DNA of 48,532 nt from a virus (Duplodnaviria > Caudoviricetes): positions 1 through 48,532 of IMG/VR virus record IMGVR_UViG_3300031860_000003; one strand, written 5' to 3'. The notes below the pieces were generated by a model. That model saw only the letters and a list, made by a program, of their open reading frames with translations. It did no database searches and was not told the DNA's origin. Every line of letters begins with the position of its first letter. Within the stretch, counting starts at the first letter, position 1. The position numbers and the translations under genes were made by a program. Positions 6,664 to 41,474 of the stretch are shown in pieces.

Positions 6664-7355
6664 GGCTCACCTCCGTGTCCGTTGGTGGACACCGAGTCGT
6701 GTGGACAGGACTCGTTTGGCTCCAGGGCCCTGCCGCAGACCGAGCAGACCCACTCCTCGGTGATCACCGGCGTGACCGCCCAGCCGCCCAGGTCCTGGGG
6801 CGGGTCGCCGTCGCGCTGCGCGGCCAGCCGCCGGGTGTCGGGCGGCAGATGGTGATCGCTCGAGCGGTGCTCGGGCAACAGTTCCTCGGCGGCGTCATCG
6901 GCGGCGCGGGCGTCCACCCAGGTGTAGGCACCCTCCGTCACGCCGGGGCCGCCGTAGTGGCGCTTCTTGATGTAGCAGCGGCCGCTCGAGCGGAAGCCCA
7001 GCAGCGCCAGCGTCCAGGCGATCGCCACCTTGGGCTGCGTCATGTGCACCCCGGACAGGTCGACGACGTGCCCGTCGGGGTCGTTGGGGTAGTCCAGGTT
7101 GTGATAAATCTCGATATAGGCGGCCTGCACCTTGAGGATCTCCTGCGCGCGCTTGCGCTCCTCGCCCTGCAATCCGGCCTGCTCGATGGTCTTGGGCGTC
7201 AGCTCGCCGTACTCGCCGAACTGCAACTTTGGCACCCCGCGCGAGCCCGCGTAGGGGTTGGTGCCGGAGAACCCGTAGCGCGAGCTGCCGATGCGGTTAT
7301 TGGAGCGCCCCGGCCCTTGCCGCGGTACGCCTTCCACTATGTTCTCGTCGTCCAT
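6660..7355 (-). CDS. Tail-region protein, possibly mycobacteriophage gene-29/DUF2744-like
   Basis: 231 aa, coupled to both neighbours; AWTLALLGFR segment and synteny. Confidence 0.55.
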   Translation of the reverse strand: MDDENIVEGVPRQGPGRSNNRIGSSRYGFSGTNPYAGSRGVPKLQFGEYGELTPKTIEQAGLQGEERKRAQEILKVQAAYIEIYHNLDYPNDPDGHVVDLSGVHMTQPKVAIAWTLALLGFRSSGRCYIKKRHYGGPGVTEGAYTWVDARAADDAAEELLPEHRSSDHHLPPDTRRLAAQRDGDPPQDLGGWAVTPVITEEWVCSVCGRALEPNESCPHDSVSTNGHGGEP

Positions 7356-28652: not shown

Positions 28653-30014
28653 TTAGGTTCTCATCAGAAAGCTGCGGCCGTTGCGAGGCGCGCCGTCGTC
28701 CTGCGGCTCGTCTTCGTCCTCGTCCTCGCCGCCGTCCTTCTCGCCGCCGGCGATCGGCGGCTGCGGGAAGCGGTCGCCACCCGGCGACGGCGGCGGCGGC
28801 GGGTTGTTGAGTGCGGGCGGGGTGCCGGCGGGCATCATCCGGTTGGAGATGTAGAGCACGTCTCCGCCCTTGACCGGGTCCATCTCCTCGCGGGCCCGGA
28901 CCTCGTTGGCGGTCATGAACGCGTTGGTGGTCTGCCCGCCCAGCGCCTTGGCGTAGGCGGCGTAGCGGCCCTCGATGTCACCGCGCAGCAGCGCGTCGTA
29001 GTCGAACTGCACGTACTGTCCTCCCGGTAGGCACGCGGATACGATCGACTCGACGCAGGACGTCCAGGCGCGGAACGTGAAAGTGATTGCACCCAAAGTG
29101 ATTTGCTCGACACCGGTTCCCCAAGCAGTGGTCTCTTTCGTGTCTCCGATCAGGATCGGCGGCACCCCGTACATCAGGCAAATCTCGGAGCGCTGGAACT
29201 GGCGCGTGGCCAAGAACTGACTTTCCTCGGGACTGATACTCAGGTTCTCCCACTTGAACCCGTTGGTCAGCACCGCGGGCAGGCGGCGCCCACCGTGCGA
29301 CGCGATCCAGTTCTTCTGCTGGCGGGTGACCGCCTTCTCATCCAGGTCCTGCTCGGTGAACAGGATCCCGGACGGGTTGGCGCTCTCCTTGAAGTAGCGG
29401 TAGCCGTACTCCTCGGCGCCCAGGCTCATCCCGATCGCGACCGCGGCCTGCTTTATCGGACTCAGGCCCCAGGGCTCGCCGGGCATGGTGAACCGGCGGA
29501 TGTGGATCATGTCCTTGGTGGGCATCTGCTCACCCATCACCCGGTAGATCGGGTCGAACCACAGCAGCAGATCGGGGCGGCGCTCGAGGAACACCACGTC
29601 GGGATGCAGCGGCAGCAGCGAGGTCGGGTAGCCCAGCTTGTCGCGGCTGGTGATCAGGTGATAGCTGTTGCCGCGCAACGCCATCGACGCGATCACCATC
29701 CACTTCCACTGGTAGAGGTCGAAGCCCGGGAACGGGGCCCGCAGGATCGCCGGCTGCGGCTTGACCTCCTTGGGCACCCCCTTGGAGTCGCGCCGGTAGG
29801 CCTTCCACGGCAGGCTCGCGATGGTGTCGGCCAGCACCCGCACGCAGGCCAGCACCGTCATGCAGGCCATCGCGCGGTGCACCCCGAGGTAGTCGTCCAG
29901 CACCCCGACCTGGGGTGGCGGCACGAACGCCGAGCTGGTCAGTGTGCGCTGCTCCATACCAGCGGGGCTGACGCCGGCGCGACCGCCGGTGACGAGTCGG
30001 GCGAGGATGCTCAC
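28653..30014 (-). CDS. HK97-family portal protein
   Basis: VLACVRVLADTIASLP, LRGNSY, GLSPI, SQFLATR and MTANEVRAREEM motifs. Confidence 0.93.
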   Translation of the reverse strand: MSILARLVTGGRAGVSPAGMEQRTLTSSAFVPPPQVGVLDDYLGVHRAMACMTVLACVRVLADTIASLPWKAYRRDSKGVPKEVKPQPAILRAPFPGFDLYQWKWMVIASMALRGNSYHLITSRDKLGYPTSLLPLHPDVVFLERRPDLLLWFDPIYRVMGEQMPTKDMIHIRRFTMPGEPWGLSPIKQAAVAIGMSLGAEEYGYRYFKESANPSGILFTEQDLDEKAVTRQQKNWIASHGGRRLPAVLTNGFKWENLSISPEESQFLATRQFQRSEICLMYGVPPILIGDTKETTAWGTGVEQITLGAITFTFRAWTSCVESIVSACLPGGQYVQFDYDALLRGDIEGRYAAYAKALGGQTTNAFMTANEVRAREEMDPVKGGDVLYISNRMMPAGTPPALNNPPPPPSPGGDRFPQPPIAGGEKDGGEDEDEDEPQDDGAPRNGRSFLMRT

Positions 30015-30028
30015 GGCCGAAGTTTCCC

Positions 30029-30499
30029 CTAGCCGCTGAAGTTCCTGCTGGTCGCCACGCCGAGCAGGACCAGACACAGACCGGCAATTAAGGTGCCCAG
30101 CCAGGCGGTGATCAGGAATCCGGTGGTGATCAGCAGGCCGATTCCGACGAGCTCGAGCCCGGTGGACACCACCTCGCGGATCTCGCCGCGGCGGTCCCGG
30201 GGCGCCTTGGGCTCCTCGATGCGCCCGACCTTCATCGGCGGCGGGTTCTCCACCGTGCGTTCGCGTTCGGGCTCGCTCTTGCGCTTGCGCTTGGGTTCGA
30301 CCTTGCGTTCGGGCTCGGGCTCGGGCTGATCAGCCCACGGCGGGGCCTCCGGCGCCATCATCTCGGCGACCCGCGCCTCCTCGATGGACTCGCGCGCCAG
30401 GCCCATCGCGGCGGCCGCGGGGGCGTCCTCCTCCCGGTAGAGCCGGCCGCCGCCGCCGAACCGGGGCCGGGAGATACTACTGCTCGTTGAATCGCTCAT
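30029..30499 (-). CDS. Hypothetical membrane protein
   Basis: Two C-terminal hydrophobic helices; lies between terminase and portal. Confidence 0.6.
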   Translation of the reverse strand: MSDSTSSSISRPRFGGGGRLYREEDAPAAAAMGLARESIEEARVAEMMAPEAPPWADQPEPEPERKVEPKRKRKSEPERERTVENPPPMKVGRIEEPKAPRDRRGEIREVVSTGLELVGIGLLITTGFLITAWLGTLIAGLCLVLLGVATSRNFSG

Positions 30500-32078
30500 C
30501 GGTTTCCTTCCGCCATTCGTTGAGGGTGTCGTCGTCGGGCCACTCCCACACGGTCGGATCGCCGACCTCGGGAGGCGGGTTGTTCAGCAGCCACACCGCG
30601 CCGCAGCAGGCGATCACCGGGGAGGCGTCCACCGGGGAGGTGCGCCGGTCGAAGAACCAGGCGTCTCCGACGCGGCGTGCCGGAGTGGACGCGGCCGCGC
30701 GATCCAGCACGGGGGCCGGTCGGTGTTTGATGGACCCGTCCACGATGCCGTCGTAGAACTCCCCGGCCCCGGCCGCGAGCTGGGCCACCGGCGCGCCCCA
30801 GTCGGTGATGGTGATCCCCACCGCGCGCAGGTCGTCGGCCAGCCCGGACACCGGCGCGTTGGTCTTCTGCAGGCAGACGCCGGCGAACTTGTCCTTGCGG
30901 GTCTTCAGCCAGTCGGGCAGCCAGCCGGTGCCCTTCGGCGGGGTCTTGATCACCTCGATGTGGATCTTCCCGTCGGACCGCCGCGACGCCACCCCGACGT
31001 AGGCGCGGGTGCGGTGGTAGTTGTACTCGATGCAGGCGTAGGCCGGGGATTCGGGATCGCGCTTGGACTCCTTGTCGACGGTGTCCTGCCACGCCTGGGC
31101 CGGGATGATGCCCGGCAGCAGCGAGTCGACCCACTGGCAGAGATATTCCGTGCGGAAGCCCGGCATGTCGTCGGCTTCCATGTTCTCGAAATGCGCCCGC
31201 AGGTCGTCCAGGCAGAACTCGTTGAGCAGCCCCAGGGCCGGGTTGGCCAGATACCAGTAGCGGTCGTCGCGCGGGTCCACGTCCTCGGGCACCGACCACT
31301 CGAAGAACCCGGTCTGCGTCTCGGCGGTGTCGCCGAGCGTGATCTTGCGCACCGCGACGGTGCGCAACTCCTTGAGCTTGACGGAGCTGTTCTCCCCGGC
31401 GTTGGAGGTCGCCAGCACCTGGCTGCAGATCCGCACGTTGGTGGTCGGGGTGACCGCGTTCCAGGCGTCCGGGGTGGTGTGCGTGCGCAGCTCGTCGAGC
31501 CAGGCGAAGTCCACCGAGAGCGAGCGGCCGCCCTTCTTGTTCGCCGTCGCCGCGCGCCAGTAGCGCCGGTAGCTTAAGATCGCGCGGTGCTTACCGTTGG
31601 TGACCCGGTGATTCAGCAGCTCGGGCGCCAGCAGCGGCTGGTCGCGGATCTCGTCGACGATGTCCTTCAGGGTGGTCTCGGCGTAGTCGAGGTTCTGCGC
31701 GGCCACCACGGCCAGCCGCGCGGCCGGCCACTCCGCGCACGGCCGGCCCTTCTTGTCCATGAACAGCCGCCACAGCCCCAGCCCCATCCCCCACTTGGTC
31801 TTCCCGTTTTGCCGGGCGACCAGGATGATCAGGTAACGGAACCTGAAACCCGTTCCGTTGCGGCGCTTTTCGAGCGCCCGGTAGTACAGCCACTTCTGCC
31901 ACGGCAGCAGCTGCCACTTGAGGATGTTCTCCAGGAAGTAGCAGCACAGCGGGCCCCAGGTGGCCTCGGGGCGGATGCCGAACTCGGCGGTCTCATCGAC
32001 GTGCTCGGGCAGCGGCGGGGTGAACAGCCGCGGGAGCGTGGAACCGACATAGGGATCGGCCTGCAGGACTGCACTCAC
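30477..32078 (-). CDS. terL: Terminase large subunit
   Basis: Walker A ARQNGKT, Walker B AWLDELR, TSNAG, ANPALG and FRTEYLCQWV. Confidence 0.95.
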   Translation of the reverse strand: MSAVLQADPYVGSTLPRLFTPPLPEHVDETAEFGIRPEATWGPLCCYFLENILKWQLLPWQKWLYYRALEKRRNGTGFRFRYLIILVARQNGKTKWGMGLGLWRLFMDKKGRPCAEWPAARLAVVAAQNLDYAETTLKDIVDEIRDQPLLAPELLNHRVTNGKHRAILSYRRYWRAATANKKGGRSLSVDFAWLDELRTHTTPDAWNAVTPTTNVRICSQVLATSNAGENSSVKLKELRTVAVRKITLGDTAETQTGFFEWSVPEDVDPRDDRYWYLANPALGLLNEFCLDDLRAHFENMEADDMPGFRTEYLCQWVDSLLPGIIPAQAWQDTVDKESKRDPESPAYACIEYNYHRTRAYVGVASRRSDGKIHIEVIKTPPKGTGWLPDWLKTRKDKFAGVCLQKTNAPVSGLADDLRAVGITITDWGAPVAQLAAGAGEFYDGIVDGSIKHRPAPVLDRAAASTPARRVGDAWFFDRRTSPVDASPVIACCGAVWLLNNPPPEVGDPTVWEWPDDDTLNEWRKETDERFNEQ

Positions 32079-32263
32079 TCGCCGTGCCTCGCGTACCGGT
32101 CGAACTCCCGGTCATCCTTGTTGGTCCAGTTCAGCGACTTGTACAGCGCGCGCCGGGCCTCCGACTCGCGGGCCTCGGCCATCGCCTCGTCGACGAGCTC
32201 GCGGAACGGCGCGAACACAAGCCGGCACAGTGCGATGACCGCATCACACAACAACCTGCGCAC
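32075..32263 (-). CDS. Hypothetical protein (62 aa)
   Basis: GTGA overlap with the terL start. Confidence 0.5.
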   Translation of the reverse strand: MRRLLCDAVIALCRLVFAPFRELVDEAMAEARESEARRALYKSLNWTNKDDREFDRYARHGE

Positions 32264-32345
32264 GGGGTAATGGTCCCGCGCTAGTTTCCGTTACTGGGGT
32301 CAAGCACATTCCCCGGCGTGTCGCATTTCGCTTTACGCGAAACAG

Positions 32346-32421
32346 TAGCGCGGGTCGGATTCGAACCGACGATTGCTTGGTTATGAGCCAAGAGGGATAG
32401 GCCTGGCTTCCCTACCGCGCT
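32346..32421 (-). tRNA. tRNA-Met(CAT)
   Basis: Cloverleaf; anticodon loop CTCATAA. Confidence 0.9.
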
Positions 32422-32423
32422 CG

Positions 32424-32495
32424 CTGAGGTGCCTGGACTCGAACCAAGATCAACGGAGCCAGAGTCCGTTGTGCTGCCGTTTACACCACACCTCA
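32424..32495 (-). tRNA. tRNA-Gln(CTG)
   Basis: Cloverleaf; loop CTCTGGC. Confidence 0.9.
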
Positions 32496-32499
32496 TTCG

Positions 32500-32572
32500 C
32501 TGACCTGGGAGGAGTCGAACCTCCAACTACTGGATTAACAGTCCAGCGTTCTGCCAGTTGAACTACAGGCCA
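32500..32572 (-). tRNA. tRNA-Asn(GTT)
   Basis: Cloverleaf; loop CTGTTAA. Confidence 0.92.
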
Positions 32573-32576
32573 CCGG

Positions 32577-32649
32577 CGCCTCCTGCCGGGATCGAACCGG
32601 CGATCTCCTGGATGAGAGCCAGGTGAGATGACCGCTACTCCAAGGAGGC
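32577..32649 (-). tRNA. tRNA-Glu(CTC)
   Basis: Cloverleaf; loop CTCTCAT. Confidence 0.9.
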
Positions 32650-32650
32650 G

Positions 32651-32723
32651 TGATTCCGATCGGACTCGAACCGATGTCGTCCGGCTTGAAAGGCCGGCAG
32701 GCTAACCGCTACCCCACGGAACC
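32651..32723 (-). tRNA. tRNA-Glu(TTC)
   Basis: Cloverleaf; loop CTTTCAA. Confidence 0.9.
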
Positions 32724-32727
32724 GGGG

Positions 32728-32799
32728 TGCGCCCGGTCGGGCTCGAACCGACGTCTCAGGATTAAAAGTCGAGAGCTAAACCATCTCAGCTACGGGCGC
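32728..32799 (-). tRNA. tRNA-Lys(TTT), two anticodon-stem mismatches
   Basis: Loop CTTTTAA; stem CTCGA/TCCTG. Confidence 0.82.
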
Positions 32800-32841
32800 C
32801 TGATTGGGCATGCGTTCAGGCTCCGGTTTACGCTGTCGCAT
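32776..32841 (-). CDS. Candidate leader peptide MRQRKPEPERMPNQAPVAEMV
   Basis: GAAGGAG SD, TATACT -10 at 32876-32881; codons match the downstream tRNAs. Confidence 0.7.
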   Translation of the reverse strand: MRQRKPEPERMPNQAPVAEMV

Positions 32842-32907
32842 TTCAGGCTCCTTCCGTGCTCGGGATGTCGCGTTGAGTATAACCTCCCACCGCGCCACAC
32901 TGGCGCA

Positions 32908-33954
32908 ATGGACGCTCAATCCCCGCCGCCGCCGGCGATCCCCGCCGATGACGACGAGCTGCACCAGATGCTGGTCGCCAAATTCCGCAGCCGCACCATC
33001 AGCTCCTGGGCGCTCACCGCACCCGCCATCCCCAGCCTGATCGACGAGTACATCGACACATGCGACAAGATGCTCGTCCCGGTGTCCCGGCCCTGGGCGT
33101 CGTTGACCCGCGAGGACAAGCGCGACATGCTCGCGCCCACCATCCAGGAGGCATTCGACGCCTCCCCCCGGTCGCGCGTCACCCTCGACTGGGATTCCAA
33201 CACCGACGTCCTGCGTATCTCCGCGCGGGTCCAGAGCATCAGCGACAGCTACGACTCCTGGCTGGACGATCGCGGCTGGGCCCCGTTCGGCACCCACGCC
33301 GACGCGCGCGTGTGGCTGTTGGCCGAAGAACTCTCGGGGGGCCGGCGCGACATCCCCATCCTGGACATCGGCGCCGGCGTCGGCCGCAACGCGATCGCGC
33401 TGGCCCGGCACGGCTACCCGGTCGATGCGGTCGAGCTGGCCCCGCGGTTCGCCGCGCAGATCCGTGCCAACGCCGACTACCTGGAGCTGACCAACATCCG
33501 CGTCCTGGCCTGCGACGTGTTCGACACCGAGGACCTGCGCGACGACTATCAGCTGATCTTCGCCGCCGAGGTGGCCACCGACTGGCAGTTCGCCCAGTGC
33601 CGCAACCTGTTCGAGCTCGCCGCCAAGCGGTTGGCTCCCGGTGGCCTGCTGCTGTTCTCCGCGTTCATCGCGCGGCAGGGTTACACCCCCACCCAGGTGG
33701 CGCGCGAGCTCGGCCAGCACGCCCTGTGCCGCCCGTTCACCGCCGACGAGATGACCGAGGCGGCGGCGGGCCTGCCGCTCGAGCTGATCGCCGACGACTC
33801 GGTCTACGACTACGAGAAGGGGCACCTGCCCAAGGAGGCGTGGCCGCCTGCAATATGGTTCGAGGCTTGGGCCACCGGCAACAACCTGTTCGCCGGCGCG
33901 CCCGATGCGTCCCCGATGCAGCTGCGCTGGCTGGTCTACCGGCGCAACTACTGA
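32908..33954 (+). CDS. Class I SAM-dependent methyltransferase
   Basis: ILDIGAGVGRN motif I, VDAVEL and LAPGGLL; high GC3. Confidence 0.9.
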   Translation: MDAQSPPPPAIPADDDELHQMLVAKFRSRTISSWALTAPAIPSLIDEYIDTCDKMLVPVSRPWASLTREDKRDMLAPTIQEAFDASPRSRVTLDWDSNTDVLRISARVQSISDSYDSWLDDRGWAPFGTHADARVWLLAEELSGGRRDIPILDIGAGVGRNAIALARHGYPVDAVELAPRFAAQIRANADYLELTNIRVLACDVFDTEDLRDDYQLIFAAEVATDWQFAQCRNLFELAAKRLAPGGLLLFSAFIARQGYTPTQVARELGQHALCRPFTADEMTEAAAGLPLELIADDSVYDYEKGHLPKEAWPPAIWFEAWATGNNLFAGAPDASPMQLRWLVYRRNY

Positions 33955-33976
33955 GTGTCCACGGGGTGGACACCTG

Positions 33977-34046
33977 CTGCTCCGCCAGGATTCGAACCTG
34001 GACAACGAGAACCAAAATCTCGACGGCTGCCGGTTACCACGGAGCA
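33977..34046 (-). tRNA. tRNA-Gln(TTG), shortened D arm
   Basis: Loop TTTTGGT; intact T and acceptor arms. Confidence 0.8.
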
Positions 34047-34047
34047 G

Positions 34048-34117
34048 TGCCCCCGAGTGGAGTCGAACCACCGCAACCGAGTTTCGGAAACTCAGGGCCA
34101 GATCCGCTGGCGAAGGC
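34048..34117 (-). tRNA. tRNA-Arg(CCG), atypical D arm
   Basis: Loop TTCCGAA; D hairpin CCAG/CTGG directly abuts the acceptor stem. Confidence 0.7.
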
Positions 34118-34148
34118 TAATTGCGAATTCCGAAATTGGAAATTAGCG

Positions 34149-34222
34149 CCCCGCCGGAGGGATTCGAACCCCCATTTCATGGCTTAGAACACCACCGCTG
34201 ATCCAGATTCAGCTACGGCGGG
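34149..34222 (-). tRNA. tRNA-Arg(TCT)
   Basis: Cloverleaf; loop GTTCTAA. Confidence 0.82.
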
Positions 34223-34271
34223 CAGGCGAGACTGAGCGTTGTCGCCTTCGTCTCGCCTGCCGTCGCATCAT
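34209..34271 (-). CDS. Candidate leader peptide MMRRQARRRRQRSVSPARRS
   Basis: GGTGAGG SD; uses all six Arg codons and both Gln codons. Confidence 0.7.
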   Translation of the reverse strand: MMRRQARRRRQRSVSPARRS

Positions 34272-34350
34272 GACCTCACCTAACCGAACCAGACCACAGC
34301 CTGCCGTGCCCTATCATGCCCGACCTTGCCAGACCTATCCGGACCGGACC
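34271..34350 (-). repeat. GGY-NN pentamer array 2 (13 of 16 units perfect)
   Basis: Minus strand GGTCC GGTCC GGATA GGTCT GGCAA GGTCG GGCAT GATAG GGCAC GGCAG GCTGT GGTCT GGTTC GGTTA GGTGA GGTCA. Confidence 0.88.
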
Positions 34351-34371
34351 ATACGGCATCACATCACTGCG

Positions 34372-34444
34372 TGCCCTCACGAGGAATCGAACCCCGGGCC
34401 TCCTGGTCCGTAGCCAGGCGCTCTCTCCGCTGAGCTATGAAGGC
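34372..34444 (-). tRNA. tRNA-Arg(ACG)
   Basis: Cloverleaf; loop CTACGGA. Confidence 0.9.
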
Positions 34445-34445
34445 G

Positions 34446-34519
34446 TTCCTGCTCCTGGGATCGAACCAGGGTCCTTCTCCTTATCAGGGAGCTGCCCCTA
34501 CCAACTGGGCCAAGCAGGA
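34446..34519 (-). tRNA. tRNA-Ile(GAT)
   Basis: Cloverleaf; loop CTGATAA. Confidence 0.88.
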
Positions 34520-34520
34520 C

Positions 34521-34595
34521 TGGCGACCCATACGGGGAACGATCCCGCGACCTCCGGCTTGACGGGCCGGCGCTCTACCACTGAGCTAATGAGCC
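34521..34595 (-). tRNA. tRNA-Asp(GTC), encoded CCA
   Basis: Loop CCGTCAA; T loop ATCGTTC. Confidence 0.85.
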
Positions 34596-34671
34596 AGGTG
34601 GGCAACTCCCCTCCGACGAGAGGGGCGGCAGTTACCAGATCCGTAGCTGGGTTCGCCGATGGTAGTTACCC
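34596..34671 (-). ncRNA. Unknown structured RNA, copy A
   Basis: Fills the Gly-Asp spacer; homologous to 35673-35769. Confidence 0.55.
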
Positions 34672-34672
34672 G

Positions 34673-34745
34673 AGCACCCGACGGGCTACGATCCCGCGGC
34701 CTCCACGTTGGCAACGTGGCGCTCTGCCTGCTGAGCTACGAGTGC
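34673..34745 (-). tRNA. tRNA-Gly(GCC)
   Basis: Loop TTGCCAA; T loop ATCGTAG. Confidence 0.88.
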
Positions 34746-34774
34746 CTGCGCTTCGCTGATTCAGTTATTGTACG

Positions 34775-34850
34775 AGCCGCAGACAGGAATCGAACCTGCG
34801 CTCTGCTTGCTTACAAGGCAAGTGCTACAGCCAACATGAGCTACTGCGGC
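34775..34850 (-). tRNA. tRNA-Thr(TGT)
   Basis: Cloverleaf; loop CTTGTAA. Confidence 0.88.
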
Positions 34851-34853
34851 CTG

Positions 34854-34926
34854 TGCGCTCGGCAGGGATCGAACCTGCGGCCTGAAGATTAAGAGTCAAC
34901 AGCTCTACCGACTGAGCTACGAGCGC
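34854..34926 (-). tRNA. tRNA-Lys(CTT), two anticodon-stem mismatches
   Basis: Loop CTCTTAA; stem GTTGA/TCTTC. Confidence 0.85.
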
Positions 34927-34985
34927 GGATCAACCGGGGCGGTCGTCGGCTTTCGCCGCCCCTGTGTGCGCGTTCGTCGCATCAT
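34917..34985 (-). CDS. Candidate leader peptide MMRRTRTQGRRKPTTAPVDPRS
   Basis: AAG plus four Thr codons directly upstream of tRNA-Lys(CTT) and tRNA-Thr(TGT). Confidence 0.6.
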   Translation of the reverse strand: MMRRTRTQGRRKPTTAPVDPRS

Positions 34986-34986
34986 G

Positions 34987-35058
34987 TGTCCCGAGCAGGT
35001 ATCGAACCTGCGGCCTCCACCGTGTCGGGGTGGCGCTCTCCCGCTGAGCTACCAGGAC
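34987..35058 (-). tRNA. tRNA-Val(GAC)
   Basis: Cloverleaf; loop CCGACAC. Confidence 0.87.
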
Positions 35059-35139
35059 GGGGCCCAGGCTTTTGATGACGGTGAACCTGAGCCCGAAACA
35101 CCGGACGGTCAAGTCTCGTGGCGCCACGGCTTGACCCAG

Positions 35140-35211
35140 TGTCCCGTCGTGGTATCGAACCACGGGCCTCCTGCGTGTGAAACAGGCGCTCTCCCGCTGA
35201 GCTAACAGGAC
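35140..35211 (-). tRNA. tRNA-Val(CAC)
   Basis: Cloverleaf; loop TTCACAC. Confidence 0.88.
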
Positions 35212-35212
35212 G

Positions 35213-35285
35213 TGCCAAGACGTGGAATCGAACCACGGCCTCCGGCTTTTCAGACCGGCGCTGCTACCAACTGAGCTATCGAGGC
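35213..35285 (-). tRNA. tRNA-Phe(GAA)
   Basis: Loop CTGAAAA; two acceptor-stem mismatches. Confidence 0.83.
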
Positions 35286-35286
35286 G

Positions 35287-35360
35287 TGGACCAGGGCGGA
35301 TTCGAACCGTCATCCGTCTCCTTGCAAGGGAGCTGCTCTGCCAATTGGAGCTACAAGCCC
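35287..35360 (-). tRNA. tRNA-Ala(TGC)
   Basis: Loop CTTGCAA; G3:U70 identity pair. Confidence 0.88.
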
Positions 35361-35450
35361 GTATGAAGTTGGGTCCGGTCCTTCGCGTCTTTCGTTCCGG
35401 CTACCCCCACCGAGGTCTGACCTCGCGCTGGTGGACGAGGGGCGCTAGCG

Positions 35451-35521
35451 AGCGGATGACCGGAATCGAACCGGTGTCGGCAGCTCGGAGGGCTGCTGCG
35501 CGGCCACTACGCCACACCCGC
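35451..35521 (-). tRNA. tRNA-Gly(TCC)
   Basis: Loop CCTCCGA; U73. Confidence 0.85.
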
Positions 35522-35596
35522 TGGGGTAACCGACCGGAATCGAACCGGCGTCCTCGGGGCCACATCCCGATGCTCTGCCATTGAGCTACGACTACC
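35522..35596 (-). tRNA. tRNA-His(GTG), G-1:C73 and encoded CCA
   Basis: Cloverleaf; loop ATGTGGC. Confidence 0.9.
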
Positions 35597-35597
35597 G

Positions 35598-35669
35598 AGC
35601 GCCCGGCGTGGGTCGAACACGCTTAAGCGGGTTTGCAGCCCGCCACCTGATCCGTTCGGTCACAGGCGC
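35598..35669 (-). tRNA. tRNA-Cys(GCA)
   Basis: Loop CTGCAAA; U73. Confidence 0.88.
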
Positions 35670-35672
35670 TTT

Positions 35673-35769
35673 GGTGGTGGCGCTCCCCTCCGGCGAGAGG
35701 GGCGACACGCTCCCCGAGTGGGGAGCTCATACCGGAACCGTAGCCGGATTGGCCGTTGGTAGCGTCACC
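35673..35769 (-). ncRNA. Unknown structured RNA, copy B
   Basis: Homologous to 34596-34671 with an extra hairpin; starts 7 nt after TGGACC-N17-TACCGT. Confidence 0.55.
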
Positions 35770-35816
35770 GTGTACCACGGTAAACCCTGCCGCCGACAAG
35801 GTCCATCCATTTTCCG

Positions 35817-35897
35817 TACCGGCAGCAGGAGTCGAACCTGCACAGCTCACGCCACGGATTTACAGTCCGCTTCCCTCGCCACATGGGATGCGCCGGC
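35817..35897 (-). tRNA. tRNA-Tyr(GTA)
   Basis: Loop CTGTAAA; extended variable arm. Confidence 0.88.
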
Positions 35898-35898
35898 G

Positions 35899-35969
35899 CA
35901 CGCTCCCCAGGAATCGAACCCAGACCAAGAGGTTTGGAAGCTCTTGTGCTACCACTACACCAGGAGCGC
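35899..35969 (-). tRNA. tRNA-Trp(CCA)
   Basis: Loop TTCCAAA; G73. Confidence 0.85.
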
Positions 35970-35973
35970 CTCG

Positions 35974-36047
35974 TCGGGGAGGCAGGATTCGAACCTGCGA
36001 TGTCTTGATCCCAAATCAAGTGGGCTGCCTGGCTGCCCTACACCCCG
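35974..36047 (-). tRNA. tRNA-Pro(TGG)
   Basis: Loop TTTGGGA; C1-G72, A73. Confidence 0.9.
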
Positions 36048-36080
36048 GTTTGGTCCCGGCGTGTGTCCACGACCGGGCGG

Positions 36081-36116
36081 CTAGCGCCAGGGATACGGTC
36101 GTGGGGCGAAGAACAT
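36081..36116 (-). CDS. Candidate leader peptide MFFAPRPYPWR
   Basis: TATGAT 7 nt before the ATG (leaderless spacing); Pro/Tyr/Trp codons upstream of tRNA-Pro, -Trp and -Tyr. Confidence 0.72.
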   Translation of the reverse strand: MFFAPRPYPWR

Positions 36117-36132
36117 GGTGATCATCATAGCG

Positions 36133-36204
36133 TGCGCTTCCAGGGATTCGAACCCTGACTGGGCCGGGTTTAAGCCAGCTGCCTCTGCGTTGGGCTAGAA
36201 GCGC
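36133..36204 (-). tRNA. tRNA-Leu(TAA), short variable loop
   Basis: Cloverleaf; loop CTTAAAC. Confidence 0.85.
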
Positions 36205-36205
36205 G

Positions 36206-36278
36206 TACACCCTCTGGGATTCGAACCCAGACTTGACCGGGTTTGAGCCGGATGCCTCTCCCGTTGGGCTAAGGGTGC
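36206..36278 (-). tRNA. tRNA-Leu(CAA), short variable loop
   Basis: Cloverleaf; loop CTCAAAC. Confidence 0.85.
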
Positions 36279-36284
36279 TTGCCG

Positions 36285-36358
36285 TACTCCCGGTGCGATT
36301 CGAACGCACACTGTCTGGTTCCTGAGACCAGTGCTTCTGCCAGTTGAGCGACGGGAGC
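36285..36358 (-). tRNA. tRNA-Leu(CAG), short variable loop
   Basis: Cloverleaf; loop CTCAGGA. Confidence 0.85.
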
Positions 36359-36387
36359 AGGTTTCTTGTTTCTTTGTTTCGTAAAAG

Positions 36388-36476
36388 CGGAGGGCGGAGG
36401 TCATGCTCCCCGAGCGCCATCACGCGCTACCCGGTATTCGACGCCGGTCGCAGGCTATCCCGCTGCTTCACCCTCC
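36388..36476 (-). tRNA. tRNA-Ser(CGA), atypical T arm
   Basis: Loop GTCGAAT; long variable arm AGCGC/GCGCT; T arm lacks TTC. Confidence 0.7.
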
Positions 36477-36477
36477 G

Positions 36478-36562
36478 AGGAGGGCTACGGGATTGAACCG
36501 TAAGCGGTGAGGCTTGCTCGGGTTAGCAACCCGGCTCCGGCGACCAACCGGAAAAGCCCTCC
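36478..36562 (-). tRNA. tRNA-Ser(GCT)
   Basis: Loop TTGCTAA; long variable arm. Confidence 0.82.
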
Positions 36563-36566
36563 AGAC

Positions 36567-36614
36567 TTAGCTAAGTCGTAAGGGACTAGATGACAGCAAT
36601 CGGTGGTCGCGCAC
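36567..36614 (-). CDS. Candidate leader peptide MRDHRLLSSSPLRLS
   Basis: TACACT 7 nt before the GTG; 8 Leu/Ser codons upstream of the Ser/Leu tRNAs. Confidence 0.75.
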   Translation of the reverse strand: MRDHRLLSSSPLRLS

Positions 36615-36631
36615 GTCAAGCAGTGTAGCAG

Positions 36632-36699
36632 TGCCGCACAAGGGATTTGAACCCTTCCCGTTCGCTTGGTTAGGGCTCACGGTCTGCCGTCGGTGCGGC
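36632..36699 (-). ncRNA. tRNA-like element or pseudo-tRNA
   Basis: Perfect 7-bp acceptor and AAGGG-TTCAAAT-CCCTT T arm; no canonical anticodon arm. Confidence 0.5.
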
Positions 36700-36776
36700 T
36701 TTCCAGCGGTGCTCCATAAACGTCAGCATCAGATACCAGCGCAGGGCCCGCCAGCGCATGGCCCACCACTCGGACA

Positions 36777-36929
36777 TCAGCACGCCAGCCTGGGGATGTT
36801 GATGCACCTGCACAAGTAGTACATGTCGTCATCCTCGGTCAACTCAGCGGCGGTGCCGATCTCGATGCCCTCGCTGTCGTAGATCACGCTGACGTCGGGC
36901 ATCATGCCCATCGTCACCAGCCCGTTCAC
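36777..36929 (-). CDS. Hypothetical protein (50 aa)
   Basis: GTGA-coupled; high GC3. Confidence 0.5.
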   Translation of the reverse strand: MNGLVTMGMMPDVSVIYDSEGIEIGTAAELTEDDDMYYLCRCINIPRLAC

Positions 36930-37009
36930 AGGCGCCCGCTTTTCTGCAGGGCCGCCACCAGGAAGTACAGCAGGATCAAGCCGCCGATCACCCCGACCAG
37001 TGTGTTCAC
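36926..37009 (-). CDS. 27-aa single-TM peptide
   Basis: MNTLVGVIGGLILLYFLVAALQKSGRL; overlaps both neighbours by GTGA. Confidence 0.5.
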   Translation of the reverse strand: MNTLVGVIGGLILLYFLVAALQKSGRL

Positions 37010-37458
37010 GTCTCTCCGTTCACCTGTTTGCGCTGCGCGCGGTAGGCCGACAGCTCGTCCAGCACGTCGCCGTCGTCGAGCTCGGCGTCGCTCATCGGCG
37101 GGGTCGGGCCGGCGCTGATCCGCTCGTCGACCATGTCGTAAATCTTGGCCTGGTCGGCCATCAGCCGCCGCGCCACCTCGATCGCCTTGAGGTCGTTGTT
37201 GTCGACGTGGCTCATCGCCTTCTTGACCAGGTGCTCCATCCGGGCCATATAGATCGTCATGGCGTTGGCGTTGCGCAGGATGTGGTCGGCGGCGCAGCGC
37301 TCCAGCTCGGCCTTGATGATCTGGTTGACCCGGGCGTCAGTCAGATTGACCTGCGCGTTGGCACCGATCGTCTTCTGGCTGTGCCCGGCCACGAACAGGT
37401 CCAGGATCAGCGCGTCCCGCTGCTGGCGTTCCTTGCGGGTCAGCGCCCGACCGGTCAT
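37006..37458 (-). CDS. Probable terminase small subunit (N-terminal HTH, helical)
   Basis: RDALILDLFVAGHSQKTIG HTH; DLKAIEVARRL; DELSAYRAQR-type C terminus. Confidence 0.6.
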   Translation of the reverse strand: MTGRALTRKERQQRDALILDLFVAGHSQKTIGANAQVNLTDARVNQIIKAELERCAADHILRNANAMTIYMARMEHLVKKAMSHVDNNDLKAIEVARRLMADQAKIYDMVDERISAGPTPPMSDAELDDGDVLDELSAYRAQRKQVNGET

Positions 37459-38231
37459 GGTTTGTATCTTCCCGCCAGAGCGTGGTTCAGGTCGGGATCG
37501 CCGAGGTTGGGCGTGTCGCCCAGCGGGTCGGTGCCGACCCGCTCCTTGATGATCTCCCGCATCAGCCAGGCCCGGCCGCGGGCGACCCGGTAGCGCGACA
37601 TCAGCGCTTCGTTGCGGCCGTAGTCGCGGTCCCAGCCCGGGCTGTCGGCCTTGGCGCCGGTGTACCCGCCGGCCGCGGCGCTGTTGTGCTCGAAGGCGTA
37701 GATGTTGCCCGGCGTTCGGCGCAGCGTGGACAGGGTTTCCACCACGAAGGTGAACGCGGTGTCCTCGTGCCCCCAGCCGATGAACGCGGGGTCCTGCCCG
37801 CCCAGGCGCCAGTATTCGGCGGTGGTGGTGACCAGGCAGCCGCCCACCCCGGCCGCGCCGTCGCCGCCCCACTCATACAGCGTGGGCAGCTCGGCGAGCC
37901 TGCGGAACGGGACCTCGACGTACTCGGGCGCCAGGATGCGGTAGCGGGTGAACGGCCAGCACACCCCGACCGGGTCGGCGACGGCGGCCTTGACGTTGGC
38001 GATGTCGGGCACGGTGTCGGCGTCGCAGATCACCACCACGTCGGTCTTCGCCTGGGCCACCGCGTTGTTGCGGGCCTGGCTCAAGCTGAAGATATCGCCG
38101 TCGGAGTCGGCGGTGATCACCGGCCAGCCGGTTTTCCACCAGAGCTCGAGCACCCGGTTGTAGGCGGCCATCCGCGAGGGGCTGGGCCGCCACGGGATGC
38201 ACACCGTGGCCGGCGCCCTACGGCGGCTCAC
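37455..38231 (-). CDS. GT-A glycosyltransferase (GT2/GT7-like)
   Basis: VCIPWR, SQARNNA, DAD motif and GGQDPAFIGWGHED. Confidence 0.88.
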   Translation of the reverse strand: MSRRRAPATVCIPWRPSPSRMAAYNRVLELWWKTGWPVITADSDGDIFSLSQARNNAVAQAKTDVVVICDADTVPDIANVKAAVADPVGVCWPFTRYRILAPEYVEVPFRRLAELPTLYEWGGDGAAGVGGCLVTTTAEYWRLGGQDPAFIGWGHEDTAFTFVVETLSTLRRTPGNIYAFEHNSAAAGGYTGAKADSPGWDRDYGRNEALMSRYRVARGRAWLMREIIKERVGTDPLGDTPNLGDPDLNHALAGRYKP

Positions 38232-38470
38232 ACCTTCACCTTGCCGCAGTGCACGCAGTTCGGGGAGGCTGACACGTACTCGCAGGCGCACATGTTGTCG
38301 GGATCCTCGCCGTGATAGCCGGGGCAGCCGCACGGCCGCCACGAGGTGTACTGGCCGGTCTCAAAGTTCCAGCCGGACAGGATGCGGACCCGGCATTTAC
38401 CGTCGCCATCGAGGTTGTGCTGCTTGGCCAAATGCGGGCATTCCGTACACTTCGGGCTCACCCTCCTCAT
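38228..38470 (-). CDS. Small Cys/His-rich protein
   Basis: CxxCxH...C, CGC and CxxC motifs. Confidence 0.55.
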   Translation of the reverse strand: MRRVSPKCTECPHLAKQHNLDGDGKCRVRILSGWNFETGQYTSWRPCGCPGYHGEDPDNMCACEYVSASPNCVHCGKVKV

Positions 38471-38582
38471 TGTCGGCGTCCTCCGCTGATTCGCCGGGAT
38501 GCCGGGGCCGTGTCATCACCACGATCAGCACCATGTTGAACACGCACACGCACACCAGGGCCAGAAACGTCGCGAACAGCAT
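38397..38582 (-). CDS. Small membrane protein
   Basis: N-terminal hydrophobic helix and acidic tail. Confidence 0.5.
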   Translation of the reverse strand: MLFATFLALVCVCVFNMVLIVVMTRPRHPGESAEDADNEEGEPEVYGMPAFGQAAQPRWRR

Positions 38583-38680
38583 GGGTATCTACAAGTACCA
38601 GACGGACTTGAATTCCGTGTTACGGCAAGCTAATCGGGCCATAACCCGAGCCGCCACACGTCATCGTCGCGAACTCCTCG

Positions 38681-39334
38681 TCAGGGCTCATCGTGGACGT
38701 ATTTCCAGTGCCCGTTGCCGGCGGCGGCGCGCCACACCGACTTCACGGCCGGCACGTCCACCAGCCGGAACCCGGCCGCCATCAGCGCGAAGCACTCGTG
38801 GATGTCGGCGCCCCAGTGCGCGAACTCGCCGTCCGGGTAGGGGAACGCGCGCAGCACGTCGCGGCGGGCGGCGAACACCCCGCCCTGGACGTGGATTTGC
38901 GGCAGGTCGGCCGGGAAGCCGTGGCTCTGCGGCGGCCCGGCGGCCTGCAGGCAGCCGGTCATCGCGACGGTGCGGGTCTGGTCGTCGACGATCGGCGCCA
39001 GCAGGTCGACCGCCCAGGACGGGTCGCGGGCGAAGCCGTGATTGGTGCACACGTACAGCAGGTACGGGCGGGTGGCGAGCTTGACCGCGAGGTTCATCGC
39101 CGGCCCGTAGAGCAGGTTGTTGCCCAGCTGCCATTGGTACCGGGTGCGCTGGATACCCTCAGCCTCCGCGGTGATGAGCGCGTCGGCGAGGCGCTGGCTG
39201 GTGGTGTCGGAGTTGTCGATGACGATCAGCTCGGAGTCCAGCGGCGTCAGCGCGGGCAGCAGGTCGCGGTTCAGCCGCTCCAGGGCCCGGTCCTCGTTGT
39301 TGTGGGCGATCATGATCGCCGTCACCGGGATCAC
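38681..39334 (-). CDS. GT2-like glycosyltransferase
   Basis: ELIVIDNS, NLLYGPAMNLA, GGVFAARRDV and WGAD motifs; DxD position degenerate. Confidence 0.72.
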   Translation of the reverse strand: MIPVTAIMIAHNNEDRALERLNRDLLPALTPLDSELIVIDNSDTTSQRLADALITAEAEGIQRTRYQWQLGNNLLYGPAMNLAVKLATRPYLLYVCTNHGFARDPSWAVDLLAPIVDDQTRTVAMTGCLQAAGPPQSHGFPADLPQIHVQGGVFAARRDVLRAFPYPDGEFAHWGADIHECFALMAAGFRLVDVPAVKSVWRAAAGNGHWKYVHDEP

Positions 39335-39588
39335 GCGAGCCTCCAGTAGCCCACGATCTTCGCCGTACCACCCTCGCTGGGGTCGAAGATGTCGTGGATC
39401 ACGCCGTCGACGACCGCGCTGGGATGGCCGTCGGCGCGCAGCACGATCAGGGAATGCGCGGCAGGCAGGTTCTCCTGGACGAAGTCGACCGCGAACGGGA
39501 ACTGGACATACGGCCAGCCGCCCTCCCGTGCGATCTCGCGCAGCCGCCCGAGCGATCCGTCCTGCGCGCAGGTGCAGACGTGCGTCAT
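39331..39588 (-). CDS. Hypothetical protein
   Basis: Coupled ORF; GHPSAVVDGVIHDIFD. Confidence 0.55.
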   Translation of the reverse strand: MTHVCTCAQDGSLGRLREIAREGGWPYVQFPFAVDFVQENLPAAHSLIVLRADGHPSAVVDGVIHDIFDPSEGGTAKIVGYWRLA

Positions 39589-39794
39589 CAGTGCCCCTCT
39601 CCGCTGGCGAGGCGCTGCAGCGCGGTCGCGGCGATCATCGCCAGCATGATGATCCGTTGCGGGTGATCCAGGGCCAGCATCGAGATCATGATCTGGGAGG
39701 TCGGTTGCGGGGCGGTGCGCAACGCCTTGATGAATTGGTCCACGATGTCGTCGGCGGCGGCCCACTGGACGGGGTCATCAGCGTGGTGGTTCAT
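39588..39794 (-). CDS. Hypothetical protein
   Basis: ATGA-coupled ORF. Confidence 0.55.
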   Translation of the reverse strand: MNHHADDPVQWAAADDIVDQFIKALRTAPQPTSQIMISMLALDHPQRIIMLAMIAATALQRLASGEGH

Positions 39795-40294
39795 TTGACG
39801 GCCAGCGCGTAGATGTCGCCGGCGTTGGACTCGTCGGCGAACCAGAAGTGGAACGGCTCCAGCCACTTTCGCAGATCGTCGCGGGTGACGTTGCGGTAGA
39901 ACTCGCCGTCGCGGATCGGTCCGCCGTCCACCGCGGAGTGCGGTGCCCGCCCTTCTCCGGCGGTGGTCATCAAAAACACTCCGCCCGGACCCAGCATCGC
40001 GTGCGCGTTGTGGCAGATCGCCTCGGCCTCGTCGGTGTGTTCCAGGGTTTCGCAGCAGACCACCGTGTCGGCCATCGGCCCGTGCCAGGTCGCCGCGTTG
40101 CCGACGCGGTCCACGTTGGGGCCGGGCACGATGTCGACACCGACGTAGTGACGGGCGTCGGTGAACAGCGGGCGCACCGGCCCCGAGTACGGCCAGTCCC
40201 CGGCCACGGTGCGACTGCCCAGCTCAACCACCCACTTGCGGGGCTCCAGCCGTTCCAGCATCGAGAAGATGAACTTGTACGCGCCCTCATGCAT
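39791..40294 (-). CDS. Class I SAM-dependent methyltransferase
   Basis: VVELGSR, YVGVDIVPGPNVD, CCETLEH and LGPGG. Confidence 0.85.
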   Translation of the reverse strand: MHEGAYKFIFSMLERLEPRKWVVELGSRTVAGDWPYSGPVRPLFTDARHYVGVDIVPGPNVDRVGNAATWHGPMADTVVCCETLEHTDEAEAICHNAHAMLGPGGVFLMTTAGEGRAPHSAVDGGPIRDGEFYRNVTRDDLRKWLEPFHFWFADESNAGDIYALAVK

Positions 40295-40360
40295 CAAATC
40301 TCCCGATCTAGATCGTTGTGGCTCCATAGGCGACGGGCGCGGATAGACGCCAGGTGGCAC

Positions 40361-41026
40361 CTAAGCTCCTCTCGACCAACCTGGGCAGTAGCCCAGGATC
40401 ACGTTGCCGGTGTCCCAGTTGGTGCGGGTGCCCACCTTCCACGCCTTGCGCTCGGTGCGCTGCTGCATCGGCCACGGCCCGTCGATCGGCACCCCGTCGG
40501 CGTGGTCGACCAGCGAGGGCACCGTGTAGCAGATGCCGACGTTCCAGCTCTGCGCCCAGCGGGTGATCCGCAGCGGCAGCTCCTCACCCCGCTGGGTGAT
40601 GTCGTCGAGCATCGGGGTGACCATGCGGATGCGGATCGCGTAGGCCACCGACCCGATCAGGCAGTCCCCGAGGATCCACGCCTTGCGCTCGGACTCGGCG
40701 GTACGCACCGCGTCGGCGGCCGCCTGCTGGGTCTCCTGTGAGGGGTGGCCGTAGCCCAGGTAGAGCCCGACAATCGGCGCCGGCGCGTGCGCCAGCGCCC
40801 GTTTGAGCTGGGTGCGGAAGTCGCGCACCGGCCACGCGTCGTCCTCGAGCACCACGCACCAGTCGGTGTGCCGGTAGGCCAGGGCCTTGAGCACGGCGAT
40901 GTGGTTGCCCTCGCGGCCCAGGGTGCCGTCGTCGACGTTCATCGCGATCGCCCCGACGTCGTTGCGCAGTGCCCGCGCGGTCGGGGCCCGCGAGGTGTGC
41001 GCGACCACGCCGACCGCGATGGTCAC
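40361..41026 (-). CDS. Actinophage glycosyltransferase (GT25-like)
   Basis: IAVGVVAH, WCVVLEDDA, LYLG and PSLVDHAD motifs. Confidence 0.8.
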   Translation of the reverse strand: MTIAVGVVAHTSRAPTARALRNDVGAIAMNVDDGTLGREGNHIAVLKALAYRHTDWCVVLEDDAWPVRDFRTQLKRALAHAPAPIVGLYLGYGHPSQETQQAAADAVRTAESERKAWILGDCLIGSVAYAIRIRMVTPMLDDITQRGEELPLRITRWAQSWNVGICYTVPSLVDHADGVPIDGPWPMQQRTERKAWKVGTRTNWDTGNVILGYCPGWSRGA

Positions 41027-41050
41027 GGCTTCACGACGAAGTAGGGCAAG

Positions 41051-41266
41051 TCATCGGCCCGCCCGGGGCCGGACCTTGAACCCCAGCGCGGTGCGCGCCG
41101 GGAACGTGTCCACCCGCAGCTGATCCAGGCCGGGCCGGAACTCCACGTCGGTCGCGATCACCCACTCGTCCATGTTCTCCTCCGTGTTGTAGCCCTTGTG
41201 CTCCAGCTCGCAGGGCACCTCGGTGCCATCCGGGCGCACGATCCGCACCCCCTCCGGTCTACCCAT
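41051..41266 (-). CDS. Hypothetical protein
   Basis: Coupled ORF, high GC3. Confidence 0.55.
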   Translation of the reverse strand: MGRPEGVRIVRPDGTEVPCELEHKGYNTEENMDEWVIATDVEFRPGLDQLRVDTFPARTALGFKVRPRAGR

Positions 41267-41474
41267 CGCCGATCACCTCGGTCAGCAGCTCGTCCAGCAC
41301 CGCGAACACGCCCCCCAGCAGAACCCACATCGCTCGCGGCCGTTCATTCGCCGGAGGACCCCACGGCTCCGATGCGCGGGCAAGCTCGCCGGTCTCCCGC
41401 AGATTCCGCCGAAGCTGAGCGATCCGCTCCTTGTCGACCATCACCAGCTTTTCGTCCTCAGCCATCACGCTCAC
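41259..41474 (-). CDS. Hypothetical protein
   Basis: Coupled ORF. Confidence 0.5.
   Translation of the reverse strand: MSVMAEDEKLVMVDKERIAQLRRNLRETGELARASEPWGPPANERPRAMWVLLGGVFAVLDELLTEVIGDG

Follow-up and report, generated by a model that had tools for sequence, protein, structure and literature searches.

Why would a phage tRNA array carry, in front of its gene blocks, short open reading frames (ORFs) written in the codons that the following tRNAs read? The question arises from a 48,532-nucleotide stretch of DNA, the IMG/VR virus record IMGVR_UViG_3300031860_000003 (hereafter the window), in which a tRNA array lies on the minus strand, directly upstream of the packaging genes of a siphophage. 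Five blocks of this array, comprising 19 tRNAs, are each preceded by an ORF of 11-22 codons, here called leaders A, B, D, E and F. We favor, at slightly better than an even chance, a model in which these leaders are ribosome-read attenuators: a stalled ribosome would free the first tRNA so that the block is made, and the OFF state would come from Rho-dependent termination. The model starts from features present in the sequences themselves, namely the ORFs, their codon match, its conservation, its rewriting after rearrangement and the start-signal motifs.

Five leaders precede five matched tRNA blocks

ARAGORN called 28 tRNAs, and two more, Ser-CGA and Arg-CCG, were read from the sequence, giving the 30 genes of the original prediction; the five ORFs that it had placed before tRNA sub-clusters are likewise all present on the minus strand. 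The leaders, their candidate start signals and their blocks are arranged as follows.

36622..36627, minus strand: -10-like hexamer TACACT, 7 nt before the GTG of leader A (predicted leaderless spacing)
36567..36614, minus strand: leader A, 15 codons, GTG start (TTG CTG TCA TCT AGT TTA CTT AGC)
36132..36562, minus strand: block A, tRNAs Ser-GCT, Ser-CGA, Leu-CAG, Leu-CAA and Leu-TAA
36476-36388, minus strand: tRNA Ser-CGA, read from the sequence, missed by ARAGORN
36124..36129, minus strand: -10-like hexamer TATGAT, 7 nt before leader B
36081..36116, minus strand: leader B, 11 codons (core CGA CCG TAT CCC TGG)
35816..36047, minus strand: block B, tRNAs Pro-TGG, Trp-CCA and Tyr-GTA
34917..34985, minus strand: leader D, 22 codons (AAG; ACG, ACA, ACG, ACC)
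34774..34926, minus strand: block D, tRNAs Lys-CTT and Thr-TGT
34209..34281, minus strand: leader E with its Shine-Dalgarno (SD) motif, 20 codons (CGG, AGA, AGG, CAA, CAG), ORF 34271-34209
33976..34222, minus strand: block E, tRNAs Arg-TCT, Arg-CCG and Gln-TTG
34117-34047, minus strand: tRNA Arg-CCG, D-arm-poor, read from the sequence, missed by ARAGORN
32776..32881, minus strand: leader F with its signals, 21 codons (CAG, AAA, GAG, GAA, ATG, AAT), ORF 32841-32776
32345..32799, minus strand: block F, tRNAs Lys-TTT, Glu-TTC, Glu-CTC, Asn-GTT, Gln-CTG and Met-CAT

Leader A stops 4 nt before tRNA-Ser-GCT. Leader D begins at the 3' end of tRNA-Val-GAC and stops at nucleotides 8-10 of tRNA-Lys-CTT, and leaders E and F stop inside tRNA-Arg-TCT and tRNA-Lys-TTT, with predicted pairing arms at 34261-34250 and 32825-32814, respectively. 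As the original prediction had stated, four leaders carry a -10 motif at leaderless spacing or an SD: a TANNNT hexamer lies 7 nt upstream of leaders A and B, and SD-like motifs precede leader E (AGGTGAGG, 34281-34274) and leader F (GGAAGGAG, 32855-32848, together with a -10-like TATACT at 32881-32876), with none found for leader D. When all leaders, including those of the related arrays described below, were pooled (n=24), 9 of 24 had TANNNT 6-7 nt upstream and 9 of 24 an SD-like motif 4-7 nt upstream. A sigma-70 scan, which requires a TTGACA-like -35, returned no promoter.

The codons of each leader match the tRNAs of its own block

The claim that the codons match the downstream tRNAs, often down to the isoacceptor, is borne out by counting: the exact Watson-Crick codon is found in the block's own leader for 16 of the 19 tRNAs, versus 14 of 131 leader/tRNA pairs taken from other blocks (Fisher 8e-11), and the true assignment of leaders to blocks is the best among 2520 permutations. 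With wobble allowed, 18 of 19 tRNAs are covered in frame versus 4 and 1 in the other two frames, the uncovered one being Ser-CGA (leader A has TCA and no TCG). The matched codons TTA, AGA and AAA are indeed rare in this genome (0.27, 1.3 and 3.3 per 1000 in nine long phage genes).

As a correction for the choice of ORF, each spacer was shuffled 1000 times and the best ORF taken each time. Shuffles reached the real score 39 (A), 43 (B), 10 (D), 69 (E) and 3 (F) times per 1000 with wobble, and 30, 217, 30, 33 and 55 times, in the same order, with exact codons. The same test on four other spacers found nothing, and all nine spacers combined gave a p value of 6e-4. Block borders in the permutation and shuffle tests were drawn by hand with the leaders in view; a fully automatic test, with borders set by a fixed 40-nt rule, gave p 0.014 in the window when Ser-CGA and Arg-CCG were added (10 spacers).

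A match at the level of isoacceptors to tRNAs made in cis would also be expected if the codons were read without a ribosome, by codon-anticodon pairing in the manner of a T-box riboswitch. We regard this as very improbable, since the leaders (39-91 nt) have start and stop codons and keep their codons in one frame, and an Rfam search of 30000-40000 gave no T-box match at E<=1.

Leaders are conserved and rewritten in related arrays

Comparison of the upstream ORFs in homologous arrays, proposed along with the original prediction, came out in its favor: the leaders are conserved in four related arrays, with their frame kept, and are rewritten where blocks are rearranged. The relatives were found by a terminase search blind to the leaders and are L003, L004 and L005 (85-88% terminase identity) and G001 (68%). 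Examination of 80 terminase-profile loci yielded one new array (L027/G001). The records of four other terminase relatives, which are fragments, held no tRNA match; BLAST of the array against phages and plasmids returned single-tRNA matches only, with no record covering 80%; and the window terminase found no relative in genome contigs. Patterns built on the tRNA bodies found, in viral and metagenome contigs, only arrays already in the set or near-identical copies (L092 differs by 1 base), and leader-based patterns gave no new array among the matches listed.

Leaders A, B and D are kept in L003, L004 and G001, and leaders E and F in L003, L004 and L005. In-frame coverage is 18/19 in the window, 22/23 in L003, 18/19 in L004, 9/9 in L005 and 18/21 in G001, and reaches at most 4 out of frame. 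Where the stop lies within the tRNA, leader-to-tRNA lengths differ by multiples of 3 (59/62, 49/52, 39/42), and leader stops interchange TAA and TAG between arrays. The -10 hexamer varies between arrays yet stays TANNNT at 6-7 nt, or gives way to an SD. For leader A, TACACT and its spacing are identical in L003 and L004, and leader B, whose core CGA CCG TAT CCC TGG is invariant across four arrays, is preceded by TACAAT in L003, TACCGT in L004 and an SD in G001. The G001 copy of leader D has TATGGT 7 nt upstream. Cognate residues were kept in 82 of 102 cases versus 69 of 108 for other residues, a descriptive comparison only, as the pairs are related.

The strongest evidence is the rewriting of leaders upon block rearrangement. 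In L003 the Arg/Gln leader precedes Ile-GAT and carries added ATA and ATT codons. In G001, the genes for Asn, Gln, Met, four Arg, a TAT-anticodon tRNA and Gln are merged into one block, which stands behind a different, new 14-codon leader covering 7 of its 9 tRNAs, and a separate AAA-bearing ORF precedes a lone Lys-TTT. In L004, leader A lacks TTA, and Leu-TAA has been split off by a 181-nt insertion.

The design recurs in phage StAugustine

Fourteen named arrays, some of them represented by the stretch around a match rather than the whole array, were run through the automatic test. One was positive, that of the Mycobacterium smegmatis phage StAugustine (PV251870), which had been fetched by tRNA similarity only.

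StAugustine (L094), 7261-7332 and 7906-7968: two unannotated codon-matched leaders

The SD-led leader covers 6 of 6 tRNAs (Thr, Ile, three Arg and Tyr; p 0.001-0.003); the second, with TATGCT 7 nt upstream, covers Trp, Asn and Gln (3 of 5) and neither Lys (p 0.086). Since ~160 spacers were tested, the single p value cannot by itself decide the matter; the start signals and second leader carry the rest. The design recurs in StAugustine with a sequence unrelated to the window. The other 13 arrays (pCBMA213_1, Myrna, Cali, Rey, Samisti12, GMA2, Gaia, BRock, Jace, Rctr197k, Magritte, Lolly9 and WilliamBoone) showed no array-level signal, with 7 of 160 spacers at p<=0.05, as by chance. As StAugustine alone was positive, the leader design is patchy and not a general trait of actinophage arrays.

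Several observations weigh against reading these ORFs as sensors. Eleven of the 30 tRNAs have no matching leader (Cys, His, two Gly, Ala, Phe, two Val, Asp, Ile and Arg-ACG), and they lie in two stretches.

34986..35669, minus strand: leaderless-block tRNAs Cys, His, Gly-TCC, Ala, Phe, Val-CAC and Val-GAC
34371..34772, minus strand: -10-like TACAAT (34772-34767) directly upstream of tRNAs Gly-GCC, Asp, Ile and Arg-ACG, which have no matching leader

In addition, three arrays, the window included, show no start signal for leader D; three arrays leave Ser-CGA unmatched; in G001, CAG, CAT and TAT are missed, and CTA replaces TTA though Leu-TAA is retained; and only five independent related arrays could be compared. 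Restricted to ARAGORN genes, the automatic test is weak in the window and its relatives (p 0.086 in the window; 0.086, 0.21, 0.086, 0.047 and 0.28 over the set).

The weak automatic test and the leaderless tRNAs, together with modest single-spacer p values and the location of the leader D AAG in the loop of a conserved GCGAAAGC hairpin, would fit ORFs that sense no codons and are by-products of conserved RNA hairpins, chance occurrences or peptides with a function of their own. We consider this improbable in view of the frame specificity, the frame-keeping indels, the swapped stops, and start signals that changed but were retained. It is also hard to square with the rewriting in G001 and L003, the sequence-unrelated case in StAugustine, and peptide sequences that are not kept when blocks change, and the result for the 13 other arrays argues that the test is not positive by default.

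Leader and tRNA are predicted to form a switch

How could a leader act on the tRNAs behind it? Each leader was folded together with the first 14 nt of its tRNA, and in the predicted minimum free energy fold the leader pairs with the 5' strand of the tRNA acceptor stem in 22 of 22 leaders. The tRNA's own end is preferred over every end of another type in 16 of 24 leaders and over their mean in 23 of 24, including the L003 Ile and G001 Asn leaders, in which both partners have changed. Leaders and shuffles could not be told apart by pairing probability alone. For leader B, the folding resolves into four segments.

36041..36106, minus strand: predicted four-segment switch of leader B
36106-36096, minus strand: segment 1 (Pro-Arg-Pro codons)
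36077-36067, minus strand: segment 2
36066-36056, minus strand: segment 3
36047-36041, minus strand: segment 4, the 5' acceptor strand of tRNA-Pro

The ribosome was modeled as a 26-nt mask (A site -15 to +10), which is an assumption; an occlusion of 26 nt is also used in the accessible text of PMC13236596. For the four Pro leaders, the predicted cost of freeing tRNA nucleotides 1-7 is 11-12.5 kcal/mol without a ribosome and 12-14 with the ribosome at the stop, versus 3-6 kcal/mol when a Pro, Tyr or Trp codon occupies the A site. In folds that include the entire tRNA, the cost for leader B of the window is 5.9 without a ribosome, 0 at codons 2-10 and again 5.9 at the stop. The Pro leaders are thus predicted to behave like the trp attenuator, ON only at codons 2-10. 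The switch prediction is clear for the four Pro leaders and partial for A, D, E and F, and in most homologs the leader is predicted to abolish the acceptor stem at equilibrium and ribosome cover to restore it.

Folding also yields points on the other side of the balance. Pairing energy beats shuffles (<=10/200) in only 10 of 22 leaders, GC-rich RNA pairing readily, and in the window (shuffles per 200: A 157, B 35, D 16, E 7, F 64) only E passes. In folds with the complete tRNA, the cloverleaf prevails over the helix for window leaders A, D, E and F (cost 0-0.2 kcal/mol), where the helix would therefore be only transient and co-transcriptional; the whole-tRNA test gives a Fisher value of 0.75 in the window and 6e-4 in G001, with 7 of 24 leaders at p<=0.05. 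In L004 and G001, the helix of leader D is not released at some cognate codons (AAG and the last Thr), a ribosome at late codons of leader F would sit on the tRNA itself, and in StAugustine no ribosome position releases the Thr helix. Finally, no U-tract terminator was found at any leader: 32100-37000 holds 2 terminator-like sites (2.5 expected), neither at a minus-strand leader.

The leaders might also be translated and coupled to their blocks under another logic, in which general translation speed or completed translation keeps the block on and the cognate codons serve feed-forward or timing. The rare Arg codon CGA occurs in all five window leaders whatever the block (10 of 84 codons versus 0.7% in phage genes) and is possibly a speed-setting feature, and three of the ORFs run into the tRNA, so that a terminating ribosome would block the helix too. 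We nevertheless hold this logic to be unlikely, about one chance in ten in our judgment, as the Pro leaders of four arrays are predicted to be ON-like only while the ribosome is at codons 2-10 and OFF-like once it is at the stop, and a general sensor needs no block-specific rewriting.

A model of tRNA supply gated by stalled ribosomes

In the attenuator model that we favor, the leader-tRNA helix and its release are predicted by folding. Under fast or absent translation, the helix would form while the tRNA emerges from RNA polymerase; a stall at a starved codon would put the ribosome over the leader arm, the tRNA would fold and the block would be made. Once formed, the helix would shut off the block in a polar way, most likely, by exclusion, through Rho-dependent termination. 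The shut-off would have to be polar, since leaders list all tRNAs of their block and RNase P would otherwise cut out the abutting tRNAs independently. Rho is favored because there is no U-tract terminator and because in D, E and F the ribosome would reach the stop with the polymerase well past the helix.

The same sensor could instead act on tRNA maturation and decay: the helix would hide the RNase P site of the first tRNA, the uncut precursor would be destroyed, and a stall would expose the site. This version is less likely, though it has perhaps a one-in-five claim on our belief. The sequestered segment is exactly the acceptor 5' strand, the predicted loss and ribosome-dependent return of the acceptor stem in most homologs fits it, as does the lack of an intrinsic terminator, and CCA is encoded by only 2 of 28 tRNA genes, so that all depend on processing. 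The leaders, however, also list codons of the second to sixth tRNAs, which are expected to fold and be cut independently, and in the window the cloverleaf out-competes the helix for 4 of 5 leaders.

The idea that ribosome stalling on a depleted codon switches on the replacement tRNAs thus stands in part: conservation, rewriting and the predicted stall-means-ON switch speak for it, and the tie to anticodon nucleases found no support. Nuclease attack, starvation and host shut-off would all be compatible triggers of the stall, among which sequence cannot tell. Taken together, we give an even chance to a tRNA-on-demand regulon in which each block's leader lists the codons supplied, the tRNA itself is the switch, trapped unless a ribosome stalls, and the phage senses destroyed or starved host tRNAs and replaces only those.

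Genomic setting and neighboring features

The window is a 48.5-kb virus record that is 53% complete, with genes for portal, prohead protease, capsid, tape-measure-like and tail proteins on the minus strand. Its terminase shares ~49% identity with the terminases of the mycobacteriophages Hilltopfarm, Typha and Bipper, so the host is likely of mycobacterial type. The array is present in 23 soil DNA runs, all flagged as possible sources; the one RNA run, X24, holds contigs of a relative less than 90% alike, and contigs cannot show transcription. No tyrosine integrase was found in the 4 records checked, and G001 gave one ParA-like match.

32908..33954, plus strand: SAM-dependent methyltransferase gene (PF13649, 1e-10)
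33955..33973, no strand assigned: operator-like palindrome GTGTCC-N7-GGACAC, the copy between block E and the methyltransferase gene

The methyltransferase gene is inserted on the opposite strand between block E and leader F, where it separates the palindrome from leader F, and is not at this place in L003, L004 or L005; further methyltransferase- and glycosyltransferase-like genes lie at 37455-42573, several with matches below the cut-off. The palindrome has 6 copies in the window (6675, 10496, 21440, 26560, 33955 and 44599) versus 0.17 expected, and its copies in L003 and L004 overlap the promoter regions of leaders A and F. It resembles an operator bound by a phage regulator, which would possibly add a second layer of control.

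Within the array, an Rfam scan brought only tRNA to gathering score, with no GOLLD or other array RNA in the spacers. Just upstream of leader A lies a 31st tRNA-like gene with a CTA anticodon (36699-36631, minus strand), of amber/Pyl type according to ARAGORN at a lowered threshold and not at the same place in L003 and L004. A structured spacer between tRNA-Gly-TCC and tRNA-Ala (35361-35449, minus strand) is conserved, with a similar sequence in G001 and more distant ones in both L003 and L004; the spacer has no Rfam match and no matching ORF, and RNAalifold on 3 sequences was uninformative. Before the Cys block, the motif TGGACC-N14/15-GTTTACC (35775-35800, minus strand), kept in L003 and L004 irrespective of frame, could be a promoter or a binding site. 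An FTVVH-type frame ahead of the same block was rejected as a leader, as the frame differs between arrays. In L003, an ORF before the Cys block (6590-6730) has Gly, Ala, Cys, His and Ala first and later Phe, Gly, Phe and Val, with a 5-codon duplicate, and may represent a sixth leader, one that the window has lost or carries out of frame. L003 also carries a tRNA-like gene (8638-8735) in which a single acceptor/T-arm frame bears two anticodon arms, CCT and TCT; in G001 there are a separate Arg-CCT and an atypical Arg-TCT.

Relation to known systems and significance

In Escherichia coli, trpL, the multivalent ilvL/thrL and pheM-pheST are leader-peptide transcription attenuators. The mycobacterial ilvB1 upstream ORF is described as another in the accessible text of PMC13236596. 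The phage leaders resemble all of these in being short ORFs with codons of several cognate amino acids, and the Pro/Trp/Tyr leader has the 1:2 / 2:3 / 3:4 layout, predicted ON with the ribosome on the sensor codons. They differ in lacking a U-tract terminator, in having a tRNA as segment 4 and in an output of tRNA genes rather than biosynthesis or synthetase genes; moreover, as the match reaches isoacceptors, tRNA loss as well as lack of an amino acid would be sensed.

Ms5788A (10.1101/834739), as far as the accessible text goes, is a leaderless mycobacterial short-ORF translational attenuator in which the SD of a protein gene is masked by a poly-Cys tract; pairing between a sensor ORF and an element downstream of it therefore has a precedent. 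Shared with it are the leaderless short ORF (leaders A and B of the window have the spacing, by motif only), sensor codons predicted to pair with a downstream functional RNA, predicted release by a stalled ribosome and no intrinsic terminator. Unlike Ms5788A, the phage leaders hold 1-2 codons per tRNA for several amino acids, and what they are predicted to hide is a tRNA acceptor strand, not an SD. The phage leaders are thus closest to Ms5788A and the ilvB1 upstream ORF, yet outside both, with no intrinsic terminator, no SD target and no protein output.

Phage tRNAs have been described as a counter-defence to anticodon nucleases (PMC10264068, PMC11464382 and PMC11555353, in the parts accessible), and the window, like these, has a large actinobacteriophage set that could refill a depleted host pool. 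Unlike in the account of PMC10264068, whose accessible text proposes no regulation and contains 'leader' 0 times, supply here appears gated per block. Mycobacterial tRNA array units are likewise dense arrays of ~30 tRNA genes, carried on a mobile element (PMC5966550, main text). That main text contains 'leader' and 'promoter' 0 times, and the plasmid array pCBMA213_1 and the cluster C/M phage arrays had no codon-matched leaders in our automatic test. Full-text literature searches, in which subscription journals were thinly covered, found no paper on leader-ORF control of tRNA genes.

The tRNA acceptor strand as switching segment would be a new attenuator output. We know of no tRNA genes under the control of ribosome-read leaders. 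Why phages carry tRNAs is an old open question, for which the current idea is the refill of host-depleted pools. If the model is true, leaders sensing single isoacceptors would show this supply to be conditional and would name the codons under attack. Such leaders could also be put to use as compact reporters for the levels of single tRNAs, and as StAugustine grows on M. smegmatis mc2 155, the idea is testable at once.

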